Positions 26,870 to 30,378 of a stretch of 33,071 nucleotides of DNA are shown here, one piece after another. This DNA is from Pseudobdellovibrionaceae bacterium (lineage in GTDB: Bacteria; Bdellovibrionota; Bdellovibrionia; Bdellovibrionales; Bdellovibrionaceae): the NCBI GenBank assembly GCA_044359815.1, contig JBIKLL010000023.1, forward strand, positions 1 to 33,071. Reading direction: 5' to 3'. The notes under the pieces are model-generated. The model was not told the DNA's origin. It did not search any database and worked only from the letters and a program-made list of their open reading frames with translations. Position 1 is the stretch's first letter. Every line of letters begins with the position of its first letter. Both the position numbers and the translations under genes were made by a program.

Positions 26870-27891
26870 AATCCCTGGTTGGTTTGGTTTTTGGATTTAT
26901 TATTTCCCTGATTCTGGTGCAGCTAATTGGCGAAAGCCCAGCGCACATTTTGCGAGTTATGTACAACAGTGCCTTTGGCAGCCCCTATGATTTGGGACAG
27001 ACTTTGTATTACACGACCTCGCTGATTTTTGCGGGCTTAGCAGTTGCAATTGCCTTTCATGCAGGGCTTTTTAATATCGGTGCTGATGGACAAATCACAG
27101 TGGCTTGTTTTTCAGTCGCCGCTGTGGCCCTGATGTTTCCGTCGTTAGGTGGTAACGGAGGACAATTAGTTTTGCTGATTGTTGCGATGTTTGCAGGATT
27201 AATGTGGGCTTTAATCCCTGCTGTGCTGAAGGTCTATCGATCCAGTCACGAGGTCATCACAACCATGATGATGAACTTTGTAGCCTACGCAGTGACAGGC
27301 TATTTTACCCTGAATCATTTTAAAAATCCTGATTCGCAAAACCCCGAAACTTCGCCAATCAATGAACACCTGTGGATTGGCAGATTTAATTTTGATGGCA
27401 TCCAGGATTCGTTTTTAAATAAATCTTTGTTTTTAGCGCTGCTGGCAGCGATTTGCTGTTATTTGTTTTTGTACAAAACTAAATGGGGATTTTTTATCAG
27501 ATCCACAGGATCCAATCCCCTGGCCGCACAGTACGCAGGGATGCCCAAAAATAGAATTTTACTGATAGCTTTTTTGTTGTCTGGAATGCTGGCTGCCATG
27601 GCATCGATGAACGAAGTCACCGGGGCCCACAATAAATTTATCATCGGTATGACAGCTGAAATTGGTTTTGTTGGGATTGCTGTTGCCATGCTGGCACAAA
27701 ACAATCCCCTTGGAATAATCCCCGCTGCGTTTTTGTTTGCTTTTTTAACCAAGGGCGCCAGCGATTTGGATCTGGAAACTCAATTAATCAGTCGTGATTT
27801 TGCCAAGATTTTACAGGGGATTATTATTTTAAGCGTTGTGGGATTTCAGTTTATAAAATTTGATTTTTTAAAAAGGGCTCGCAATGGATAA
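26866..27891 (+). CDS. Nucleoside ABC transporter permease
   Basis: AGLFNIGADGQ, HEVITTMMMN and GFVGIAVAMLAQNNP motifs. ATGA overlap with the ATPase gene. Confidence 0.92.
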   Translation: MKSLVGLVFGFIISLILVQLIGESPAHILRVMYNSAFGSPYDLGQTLYYTTSLIFAGLAVAIAFHAGLFNIGADGQITVACFSVAAVALMFPSLGGNGGQLVLLIVAMFAGLMWALIPAVLKVYRSSHEVITTMMMNFVAYAVTGYFTLNHFKNPDSQNPETSPINEHLWIGRFNFDGIQDSFLNKSLFLALLAAICCYLFLYKTKWGFFIRSTGSNPLAAQYAGMPKNRILLIAFLLSGMLAAMASMNEVTGAHNKFIIGMTAEIGFVGIAVAMLAQNNPLGIIPAAFLFAFLTKGASDLDLETQLISRDFAKILQGIIILSVVGFQFIKFDFLKRARNG

Positions 27892-28747
27892 TTTTTTGGA
27901 TCAAGCCTTTTTAATCAGCGTGATCAGATTGTCGACGCCGTTGATTTTTGCAAGCCTGGGCGGATTGTTTGCCGAACGCAGTGGGATTGTGCAGTTGGCA
28001 TTAGAAGGCTTGATGTTAATAGGGGCCTTTGTAGCAGCCGTAGTAACACTGAAATTTCAAAACCCTTGGTTGGGATTTTTAACTGCCGGTTTTGCCTGCG
28101 GCATCGTTGGTATTATCCAATGGTTTTTTTCGGACAAACTGAAGGCCAATCAAATTGTCCTGGGCACAGGTATAAATATTTTGGCATTTGGGTTAGTACC
28201 TGTTTTATGCAAGGCCTTGTTTGGCTCAACTGCGGGAACTCCAGCAATCGATCTGCAGTTCAGATTTACCGGTGAACCAATTTATCTGATGGTTGGGATT
28301 TTTGTGGTGATCGCAATTTGGTTTAATTATTTCAGATCCGGTTTGTGGTTGCAGTTTTGTGGGGAAAATCCATCGATCCTGGATTCTGCAGGGATTTCCA
28401 GTTCAAAATTTAGAATGAAAATGATGTTTATATCAGGTGCCTTGGCAGGATTTGCCGGAGCCAGTTTATCGATCTTTCTGAGCTCAAGCTACAGCAATCA
28501 AATCACTGCGGGTCGCGGATTTATTGCACTGGCTGCGTTGATTTTTGGTGGCTGGAAACCTGTTGAGACCTTTTTTGCATGTTTGCTGTTTGCTGTCGCT
28601 GATGCTGTTCAGATCCAGCTGCAGGGTCACAGCAGCTTTATCCCAGTGCAGTTTATACAGATACTGCCTTATGTGATTACGATTGCTGCTATCGCGATTG
28701 TGGGCCAACAATCGAACGCCCCCAAATCGCTGGGCCAAGCCAAATAA
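27884..28747 (+). CDS. Nucleoside ABC transporter permease
   Basis: ERSGIVQLALEG, GENP, GRGFIALAALIFGGWKP and LPYVIT motifs. Confidence 0.92.
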   Translation: MDNFLDQAFLISVIRLSTPLIFASLGGLFAERSGIVQLALEGLMLIGAFVAAVVTLKFQNPWLGFLTAGFACGIVGIIQWFFSDKLKANQIVLGTGINILAFGLVPVLCKALFGSTAGTPAIDLQFRFTGEPIYLMVGIFVVIAIWFNYFRSGLWLQFCGENPSILDSAGISSSKFRMKMMFISGALAGFAGASLSIFLSSSYSNQITAGRGFIALAALIFGGWKPVETFFACLLFAVADAVQIQLQGHSSFIPVQFIQILPYVITIAAIAIVGQQSNAPKSLGQAK

Positions 28748-28753
28748 TCTTGC

Positions 28754-29140
28754 GACTAAACCCGAGCTGAGAGTTACCGAAGTGAAAAAAAATTCTGAGT
28801 TTTTACATTTAAAAATATTTAAAAAGGTCACAGCTCCTGCTTCTCTGCTCGGACAAGCCCCGCCATCCGGGCTCCGCAGAGGACCTTTTTAAATATTTTT
28901 AAATGTAAAAACTCAGAATTTTTTTTCACTTCGGTAACTCACAGGTCGATATAGTTTGGCAGATTTTAGAAATAAATATTTAATTTTTGTATTTTACTTA
29001 AATGGGTCACAGCCTCGTGCCTCATCCGCTCGGGCAAGCCCCCGCCATCCATGGCTCCGCGGAGAACCCATTTAAGCAAAACACAAAATTAAATATTTAT
29101 TTCTAAAATCTGCCAAAGCTCAGTTCCGTGAGGTTTAGTC
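28754..29140. repeat. Compound palindromic element: two long hairpins with homologous GC-rich cores, closed by outer inverted repeat (candidate structured ncRNA or non-autonomous mobile element)
   Basis: Perfect 59-bp IR at 28771-28829/28882-28940, near-perfect 52/53-bp IR at 28955-29007/29066-29117, homologous cores at 28830-28881 and 29008-29065, and outer GACTAAACC/GGTTTAGTC at 28754-28762/29132-29140. Confidence 0.92.
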
Positions 29141-29196
29141 TTTGAGAATTGGAGGTTCTGTCACTAATTCTTACTTGGACTGGGCATGGGCAAAAT

Positions 29197-30378
29197 TTAG
29201 CGGCAGGTTTTGGTGCCAGATTCGATCAGACAATATTCGCCAAGCTGACCGTTTTCACCAGCCACGCCATTTAACCCCTGTATCCCTTGCCTGCCAGGTT
29301 TGGGTTGTTCGCCGACAAAGCATTTGAAATCAGGATGACTAAGATTTTTCTGATCAAAATCTTTTGGGTGCAAACCTGGCTCGCCACCCAGTTGCCCAGC
29401 ACCACCGTAACCACCCTGACCACCCAAACCCTGAGCTTTTTGTATTTTGATTTCTGCATCAATCAGATCAGCGTCCGCATAAAAGCTTCCACTAAATCCA
29501 CCATGGCCGCCATTGCCCCCACGTTTTCCAGCGACACCTTCCGAACCATTTGAAGGCATAAAATAAATATTAAAACACCAAACACCTTTATGATGATTAC
29601 CACCTGGATAGAAATTGAAATAACCGCTTTGTCCCCTGGCCGCAGGTTCCGTAATTGGTTTTGCAGATTCACCATCACCACCGTGTTGTCCCTGCAATAA
29701 AACTGAAGCGGTTCCGGTAATCAATTTGGCTTTTAAATTAATATTTCCGCCAGGCCTGCCAGACTGACTGGCTGATGCATGGCTGTCAGATTCAAAAGTT
29801 ACAAATTTTGTGTCTTTCAAAATTATTTCGCTGGCCTGCAATCGCAAATTGTTGGATCCGATTTTAAACACAGACTTTTCAGCGATAAAAATTCTGCCTG
29901 TTGTTTGCAGCAGCAGATCCTTATCAAGCTCAGATCCTGAAACATTTAGATCCTTGGGTACTGTGATTGAAACCCTGTCCAAAATATTTTCGTCTGCAGT
30001 GTCCAGACCCTTTGAGCATTTGTATTCATAGGTTTGGCCTGCAACAGCTTCGGAATCGACAGTCTGACCTGCCAGTGATCTGTCGCCAGTTTGATTGTCG
30101 GTCTGATTCAGGATCTGATTGCCGCCGGTTTTAGGTATCAACTTCAGGGCGTTGTTGCCTTGAAATTTTGCTATTACCTGGCATTGGGGATCGGCTGAAA
30201 TCTGGATGTGATAACTGTCAAACTGTTCATTGGCTTTTGCGGTTACAGTTAGCAGTGCTGATTTTTGCGCATAGTTTTGAGTGACGCTGGGTTTGGGCGC
30301 TGATTCAGAATCTGAGTCTGCGATTTTCACACAGCCAGTCAGGCTTAGTGCTAGCAAACATACAATTGGGTGTTTCAT
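29197..30378 (-). CDS. Lipoprotein with interrupted collagen-like Gly-X-Y repeats
   Basis: Lipobox LTGC, Gly-X-Y runs (GSEGVAGKRGGNGGHG, GLGGQGGYGGAGQLG, GRQGIQGLNGVAGENGQLG) and an AAGGAG RBS. Confidence 0.8.
   Translation of the reverse strand: MKHPIVCLLALSLTGCVKIADSDSESAPKPSVTQNYAQKSALLTVTAKANEQFDSYHIQISADPQCQVIAKFQGNNALKLIPKTGGNQILNQTDNQTGDRSLAGQTVDSEAVAGQTYEYKCSKGLDTADENILDRVSITVPKDLNVSGSELDKDLLLQTTGRIFIAEKSVFKIGSNNLRLQASEIILKDTKFVTFESDSHASASQSGRPGGNINLKAKLITGTASVLLQGQHGGDGESAKPITEPAARGQSGYFNFYPGGNHHKGVWCFNIYFMPSNGSEGVAGKRGGNGGHGGFSGSFYADADLIDAEIKIQKAQGLGGQGGYGGAGQLGGEPGLHPKDFDQKNLSHPDFKCFVGEQPKPGRQGIQGLNGVAGENGQLGEYCLIESGTKTCR

Follow-up and report, generated by a model that had tools for sequence, protein, structure and literature searches.

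The twin hairpin examined here occupies positions 28754-29140 of the window, the term used below for the whole 33,071-nucleotide stretch of DNA that was analysed, and lies between two convergent genes. An ABC permease gene of the branched-chain amino-acid type ends with a TAA at 28747, and the element starts at 28754, 6 nt later, as the earlier note had it. On the other side a 393-aa gene, for which a Pfam search returned no family, reads towards the element; the twin sits 79 nt past the stop of this gene, on its sense strand. The features are as follows:

27884..28747, plus strand: branched-chain amino-acid-type ABC permease gene (Pfam BPD_transp_2, E = 5e-34)
28754..28762, no strand: left half of an outer 9-nt inverted repeat, read from the letters and paired in the minimum-free-energy folds
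28763..28829, minus strand: hairpin 1 first arm (the one farther from the downstream gene), 67 nt, of which the inner 59 nt are perfectly paired
28830..28881, minus strand: hairpin 1 core, a multi-helix tip (covariance-model score 91 bits)
28882..28948, minus strand: hairpin 1 second arm, 67 nt
28955..29007, minus strand: hairpin 2 first arm, from inverted-repeat detection
29008..29065, minus strand: hairpin 2 core, 58 nt (covariance-model score 78 bits)
29066..29117, minus strand: hairpin 2 second arm, from inverted-repeat detection
29132..29140, no strand: right half of the outer 9-nt inverted repeat, pairing with 28754-28762
29197..30378, minus strand: convergent downstream gene, 393 aa (open reading frame; Pfam search)

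Direct re-measurement agreed to the base with the coordinates and dimensions that the earlier note had given for the two hairpins. The arms of hairpin 1 are 97% complementary over 67 nt with 52 nt between them; the inner stem (28771-28829) is a perfect 59 bp with 14/59 GC, around a core of 52 nt with 35/52 GC. In hairpin 2, the arms pair perfectly over 33 nt and at 86% over an overlapping 28 nt, giving a stem of 50 pairs with two mismatches and one bulge around the 58-nt core. The close alignment of the two cores was also seen again, as was the limited likeness of their arms, which share only a 10-mer and the core-proximal end. Both hairpins are bracketed by the perfect 9-nt inverted repeat, which may be due to chance, or may be a remnant of an older outer stem or of an insertion target. 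Folding of the 387-nt element is far beyond chance, with a minimum free energy of -198 kcal/mol against -78.8 +/- 5.3 in shuffles (z = -22.4; none of 100 as good), and the complementary strand displays a similar excess of folding energy. The earlier note had set the element apart from a terminator on account of its length, and no short GC-rich stem followed by a U tract is found on it in the window.

Long inverted repeats could also be produced as a fold-back chimera of the assembly, and several contigs of this genome do end within copies of the repeat, a sign that it disturbs assembly. The joints of the twin hairpin are nevertheless reproduced in independent lake-metagenome contigs. There were no differences from the permease gene through the left arm into core 1 (28477-28848) in a lake-metagenome contig piece (X3), from the spacer and the left arm of hairpin 2 into core 2 (28911-28984 and 28955-29064) in metagenome pieces (X2), or from core 2 through the right arm into the next gene (29039-29500) in a metagenome piece (X3), this support being made up of overlapping pieces, no single one of which spans the whole element. 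Exact junction pieces were found in at least three independent metagenomes, copies lie on more than 40 contigs of this genome, and complete genomes of cultured strains show this architecture too. The twin is thus not an artefact, and a chimera is exceedingly improbable. Metagenome contigs matching the window contained no empty-site joints. A search of metagenome contigs for the permease gave two loci, one stopping at the end of the gene and the other a 54% relative without the element, and a protein scan of genome contigs for an empty-site permease locus gave no match.

Dispersed copies and the variation of their arms

Searches of the 2.95-Mb genome returned 56 loci by blastn with the two window cores, 64 matches with a core HMM at E < 1e-4 and 61 matches with a covariance model (R1). 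An own inverted repeat of 39-81 nt (median 56) accompanies 58 of the 64 core matches, the other six being without arms or cut off at contig ends. Together, the 58 armed copies hold 3256 paired positions with 99 mismatches and 10 bulged nucleotides, and their arms have a GC content of 0.11-0.34 in a genome of 41% GC. The earlier suggestion of a dispersed family, in which a conserved core is flanked by self-complementary arms that differ between copies, was therefore correct. The figure of 61 copies is a lower bound, since several contigs end in copies; breaks inside copies were seen at C2:1-54, C33:1-26 and C92:1-42, at the ends of contigs C41 and C121 and at the starts of C76 and C20. The family contributes to the fragmentation of the assembly, and its copy number is underestimated.

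Neighbouring genes were taken from heuristic ORF calls of at least 110 aa, which left five further copies with only one called neighbour. Among the 53 copies with two, none is flanked by divergent genes and 32 are flanked by convergent ones, the two tandem orientations accounting for 11 and 10, and copies are often found within about 10-25 nt of a stop codon. No bias was seen in the orientation of the core relative to transcription in the tandem contexts (11 versus 10), or relative to GC skew as a measure of replication strand (25 versus 22). Close pairs in the genome comprise the tandem pair of the window, two pairs, 38 and 1342 nt apart, in which the strands bearing the GGA loops described below diverge, and a single pair in which they converge. 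A composite transposon was considered and rejected, the genes between paired copies (contigs C116 and C124, and C2 of genome G017) looking ordinary and including no transposase.

The arms follow a loose family consensus and can be aligned for 40-65 nt in many pairs of copies. In 271 related pairs, which are not independent of one another, 3211 left-arm and 3272 right-arm differences were counted, of which 3007 were concordant, so that about 93% are mirrored in the opposite arm. The two arms evolve in concert, and among orthologous as well as paralogous copies the core is kept and the arms are rewritten yet still paired. Quasi-palindrome template-switch correction (the Ripley model) is a mutational mechanism that would keep both arms identical while their shared sequence drifts, as in this family; it is, however, a mechanism and not an element family, and leaves the conserved core unexplained. 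The outer arm ends differ in every one of the 58 copies of the flank listing, in which no conserved termini or target-site duplications were seen by eye. Guide-like sequence in the arms, another proposal of the earlier note, found no backing, as searches of phages, plasmids and the genome itself matched the arms only to those of other copies.

The earlier note had also envisaged core-directed inverted duplication of local DNA, whereby the core would be the mobile or active unit and the arms of each copy would mirror the DNA flanking it. Hairpin 1 of the window, which is among the most diverged copies and shares only about 11 nt of arm homology with its best relative, would suit this idea, as would palindromes that extend a median of 18 nt past detectable homology and arm ends that are specific to the locus, at times mirroring both convergent stop codons (contigs C122 and C39). 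In contrast, homology between the arms of many copies extends to 40-65 nt, in some pairs even past the end of the palindrome; the arms therefore travel with the core. Ends that seem unique partly match a more distal family motif, and the notion of a palindrome reaching into unique local DNA was weakened in that the distal arm parts are diverged family sequence. Furthermore, orthologues in three to five species keep the length of the arms, and at one locus their outer ends too, with the interior alone rewritten. Duplication of local DNA thus appears very unlikely as the origin of the arms.

A different arrangement was observed in genome G009, where elements of about 330 nt (L082-L086) have, midway along the stem, another module that is conserved and asymmetric, with copy-specific, perfectly paired segments on both its inner and its outer side. 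In L086 the orientation of this module with respect to the core is reversed, as though the inner part of the element had inverted.

Fold and probable working strand of the core

The core is made up of four small helices (P1-P4), closed by the long stem. Of the cells in the 43 standard copies from this genome, 96.2% pair, compared with 84.9% in shuffles, with double changes at 19 of 30 pairs; in a cross-genus alignment, itself fitted to the covariance model, 93.9% pair, compared with 65.0% in shuffles and 36-48% in slid controls, with double changes at 28 of 30 pairs. A fold with covariation is thus shown both within the genome and across genera. In hairpin 1 of the window, the core loops read on the minus strand are AGGA (TCCT on the plus strand, 28835-28838) and CGGAU (ATCCG on the plus strand, 28865-28869), and the core alignment places a deletion that has shortened helix P3. 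The P4 loop of hairpin 2 reads AUGGAU on the minus strand (plus-strand positions 29047-29052), and its P1 loop ACGAG, without GGA.

Structural variants among the copies include a long P1 insert, a deleted P4 and a large P3 insert. A copy on contig C43 (about 2010-2300) has typical arms and both core ends, but its P3/P4 region is replaced by some 110 nt of AT-rich sequence. Helix P3 acts as a site of expansion, and one copy of genome G019 likewise has a long P3.

The earlier note had read the element on the plus strand, but the evidence favours the complement, and the working strand is probably the minus strand of the window. Within 15 bp of the core, the 52 unbulged copies show 17 A.C mismatches (G.U when read on the minus strand) to a single G.T. 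The same asymmetry was found in 34 copies from other genomes. Their arms have 54 mismatches, spread over about 11 genomes, and every one reads A.C, C.C or C.T on the plus strand (20 A.C and no G.T), hence G.U, G.G or G.A on the minus strand; several of the 54 are inherited within genome G012. On the minus strand, GGA is present in the P1 and P4 loops of 28/29 and 27/29 copies from other genomes and of 32/43 and 42/43 copies in this one, hairpin 2 being among the 11 copies here that do not carry it in P1. In the cross-genus core helices G.U occurs 11 times on the plus strand and twice on the minus strand, mostly in P3, which is poorly aligned in this model-fitted alignment. Mismatches that contain G are the most stable ones in DNA too, and for this reason the asymmetry fits single-stranded DNA as well as RNA. 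Positions 16-30 of the stem hold only 5 mismatches in 780, a near-absence that looks more like copying than selection at the level of RNA, and further out there is no asymmetry.

Distribution and conserved loci in Bdellovibrio

The family was found in 10 of 40 relatives, namely 9 of 24 genomes of the same family and 1 of 16 from other families of the order. In a wider sample of the family, for which 30 candidates were scored per genome, 32 of 150 genomes were positive, cultured Bdellovibrio bacteriovorus included, and the positives fall in 15 of 41 genera, counting the genus of the present genome. Within the genus of genome G008, 18 of 32 genomes were positive with one or two matches each. The present genome, with at least 61 copies, is the outlier in copy number; the next highest are G012 with 11-12 matches and G050 with 7. 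Species-representative genomes were also scanned with a 20-nt degenerate core pattern, which proved too unspecific in GC-rich genomes (at least 114 stretches); on checking with R1, 6 of the 80 matches listed were true loci, all six in Bdellovibrio and named B. bacteriovorus strains among them. A literature search for a Bdellovibrio repeat of this kind found no description. On our preferred reading, set out below, the elements are specific to the Bdellovibrio family of bacteria.

Two loci are conserved. G008 and named Bdellovibrio records carry one copy in the spacer between prpD and prpB, and a second Bdellovibrio copy lies about 54 nt upstream of the SRP RNA gene, beside dnaX, in a divergent region. 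When five and three orthologous copies, respectively, were aligned, position, orientation and core were kept, while the arm interiors ranged from a divergence of about a third (about 14/40 positions between G008 and L113) to unalignable and were still paired; at the SRP locus the outer arm ends were kept as well. Orthologues that keep their place and their core but differ in their arms point to rewriting of the arms in place. No R1 match was found on the contig of the SRP RNA gene in this genome or in G012, G009, G017 and G005, which represent four other genera.

In the present genome prpD and prpB abut and a copy follows prpB (contig C14:10086-12606), whereas the copy of Bdellovibrio proper (L208 of G008) separates prpD from prpB; both lineages thus have a copy in the prp cluster, though not in the same spacer. 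A short hairpin was also observed directly after the prpD stop, right before the long element (L113, L121 and L208 of G008), and in L208 it includes the last prpD codons.

With these contexts at hand, a passive role could be considered, in which the element would act as a hairpin at gene 3' ends like enterobacterial REP/BIME, its stem blocking exonucleases or being cut by RNase III in read-through transcripts of either strand, and its core being a tolerated spacer that keeps the palindrome stable. The exclusion of copies from divergent gene pairs (0/53) and their excess between convergent ones (32/53), their closeness to stop codons, their independence of orientation and the intercistronic position of one conserved Bdellovibrio copy in the prp operon are all consistent with such a role. 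However, in a mere spacer neither the covarying fold of four helices nor the GGA loops would be kept across 15 genera, and a passive hairpin would not give strand-specific tolerance of mismatches. The conserved copy near the SRP RNA gene of Bdellovibrio, for its part, occupies a divergent region upstream of that gene, and the signature of a U-tract terminator is missing from the element in the window. It is thus unlikely that the element serves only as a passive hairpin.

A TwoAYGGAY-like family and its possible role

The closest described motif is TwoAYGGAY (RF01731), which has reportedly been treated by Weinberg 2010, Gardner & Eldai 2015 and a preprint of Li et al. 2026. It is described as two AYGGAY loops on a basal stem and rated probably an RNA in PMC2864571, and its match to a CsrA-binding motif, together with poor conservation of its external stem, is recorded in PMC4333381. 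For Pseudomonas, bioRxiv 10.64898/2026.09.22.753630 gives a median of 11-23 and a maximum of 202 copies, with doublets of which 68% are divergent and with variation between strains, and terms the motif mobile-element-like and a possible Csr/Rsm sponge.

Searching the present genome with RF01731 gave seven matches at E <= 1, all on elements and all on the minus-type (GGA) strand, with scores of 24-34.5 bits against a gathering threshold of 43, and no match rose above the cut-off in the five genomes searched. The best score, 34.5 bits, belongs to a copy on contig C9 (L028), in whose alignment the first AUGGAU hairpin of the model falls on P4; hairpin 2 of the window matches at 28957-29115 on the minus strand with 24.4 bits. 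The three matches of known orientation in G009 and G017 are likewise on the GGA strand, and 14 control genomes gave no RF01731 matches. Matches are limited to the subfamily with a plus-strand P4 loop of ATCCAT, and the full AYGGAY hexamer is present only in a subset of copies, for example in 7 of 43 P4 loops here. Apart from TwoAYGGAY, a permissive Rfam scan of both strands produced only generic long-hairpin (plant miRNA) matches. As regards a match to a known Rfam family, which the earlier note had said would remove the novelty, there is thus a resemblance to TwoAYGGAY but no score at the gathering threshold. Similarly, its statement that the layout is the reverse of MITEs, REPINs and attC sites holds against those three, but the same layout, of a conserved two-loop core, a variable stem and doublets, already exists in TwoAYGGAY.

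Both families carry two GGA-containing loops on a common elongated and poorly conserved basal stem, and both occur in many copies per genome, with large differences between lineages and with doublets. They differ in that the loops here are usually of 4-5 nt (AGGA, UGGAU, UGGAC), unlike the hexamer of TwoAYGGAY, in that helix P2 encloses one of the GGA hairpins together with an additional variable hairpin, P3, and in that the basal stem is a near-perfect 40-80 bp. Flanking 5-6-mer arrays, a feature of TwoAYGGAY, are not typical here, with a short-period array within 300 nt of only 2 of the 58 copies. The hosts are Bdellovibrionota, and the word Bdellovibrio is absent from the main text of the 2026 TwoAYGGAY preprint. 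On the best reading, the family is to be filed as a TwoAYGGAY-like variant and not as a member of TwoAYGGAY. Csr/Rsm binding of TwoAYGGAY stands as a proposal only. CsrA antagonist RNAs are, in the account of PMC4333381, established only in Gammaproteobacteria, and the CsrA of B. bacteriovorus is reported to be active in a heterologous reporter (PMC13443453). A CsrA gene was found in all 41 genomes searched, and since it is present with or without the element there is no signal of co-occurrence.

The main rival explanation is a selfish foldback DNA repeat following the logic of REPINs, in which the strand would fold as single-stranded DNA and an enzyme would recognise the folded core and move or copy the hairpin, with no role for RNA. 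As portrayed by Bertels & Rainey 2011 (PMC3116915), REPINs with their RAYT transposases share with our family a dispersed, extragenic layout of hairpin-forming doublets, compensatory changes across the hairpin, long vertical persistence and a proposed single-stranded form, but they have conserved ends (REP 16-mers) and a variable middle, and here the middle is conserved and the ends vary. MITE/Correia-type elements resemble the family in being small, gene-less, multi-copy and intergenic with long inverted repeats; unlike them, it yielded no conserved terminal inverted repeats, target-site duplication or parent insertion sequence with matching ends. An integron attC site was rejected, as the family has a variable base and a conserved centre, the opposite of attC.

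A selfish repeat would account for the wide span of copy numbers among genera (1-2 in some, at least 61 here) and the non-orthologous positions of the copies, for the random orientation of the core relative to transcription and GC skew, and for stems that are near-perfectly Watson-Crick with few wobbles, and single-stranded DNA would fit the strand asymmetry equally well. The genome also carries seven to eight copies of a 206-aa Y1 (HUH) transposase-like gene. Against this, the flank listing displayed neither conserved termini nor, by eye, target-site duplications, and the Y1-like genes do not adjoin elements in this genome, the nearest lying about 5 kb away. No RAYT gene flanked by elements was found, the flanks of the Y1-like genes hold no element, and in four other genomes there were no extra core matches around such genes. 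G019 has elements but no Y1 match, and many genomes have Y1 genes without elements. The RAYT/HUH co-occurrence that the earlier note had in mind thus reduces to the presence of Y1-like genes, with no linkage to the elements; a link was considered in view of elements 2-3 kb from a Y1-like gene in three genomes and was rejected, there being no adjacency and no extra copies. Moreover, two loci that keep position and orientation across Bdellovibrio species would be unusual for a purely selfish element, which would also leave the GGA loops and the resemblance to TwoAYGGAY unexplained. We consider a selfish repeat possible, but doubtful.

The Y1/HUH transposase-like genes themselves lie outside the window. 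Seven alike copies were located (C23:201-821, C48:48177-48797, C56:2969-3616, C47:11964-12584, C49:93331-93951, C100:633-1253 and C125:2378-2998), of 206 aa except for one of 215 aa, with borderline scores to Pfam Y1_Tnp. Their homology begins about 100 nt upstream and ends at the stop codon, and five of the seven have a microsatellite array of 5-8-mers within 600 nt, the genome having 50 such arrays in total.

Our preferred reading, drawn from sequence comparison and held at roughly even confidence, is that the twin represents two neighbouring copies of a long-hairpin family of the Bdellovibrio lineage, TwoAYGGAY-like, that would work as a single strand of the minus-strand sequence of the window, most likely as RNA. 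The core would fold into a small branched tip (P1-P4) presenting two GGA terminal loops on the long basal stem, and the tip may bind a dimeric RNA-binding protein, for which CsrA is the obvious candidate. The stem would need only to pair, its sequence drifting at about the neutral rate while the arms stay complementary; this complementarity could come from homogenisation at the level of DNA, by template switching or gene conversion between the arms, with selection for a double-stranded RNA stalk possibly helping to keep them paired. It is because the arms are homogenised that the stalk would be free to drift. The element would otherwise behave like mobile DNA, with 1-2 copies at fixed loci in Bdellovibrio proper and at least 61 here, tolerated only at gene 3' ends. 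Counting against RNA is the unbiased orientation relative to neighbouring genes (11 versus 10 tandem). In the prpD-prpB spacer, the GGA strand runs antisense to the operon and would thus need a promoter of its own, and a search of the window copies found no promoter-like sites. The 24 runs in which this stretch was found included no RNA run, a result with no bearing on expression.

A more specific model, of a bacterial analogue of processed hairpin precursors, is a long shot. Read-through transcripts from gene 3' ends would fold into the perfect 40-80-bp stalk, and RNase III would trim them to a GGA-tip RNA with a stem of about 15 bp that titrates CsrA; about 60 loci of a predatory bacterium would in this way tie their own transcription to global CsrA activity. 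Continuous re-copying of the DNA arms from one another would leave the stalk sequence free to drift, and the sharp change in mismatches about 15 bp from the core would mark the end of the mature RNA. Several phyla have TwoAYGGAY-type elements in abundance, and a related element is now at hand in a cultivable predator, where it occupies fixed positions in one or two copies, in the prpD-prpB spacer and ahead of the SRP RNA gene, which makes deletion, RNA mapping and tests of CsrA binding feasible. The family is also an unusually clean case of a long inverted repeat with concerted evolution of its arms, and its orthologous copies in several species make the rate of arm rewriting measurable.
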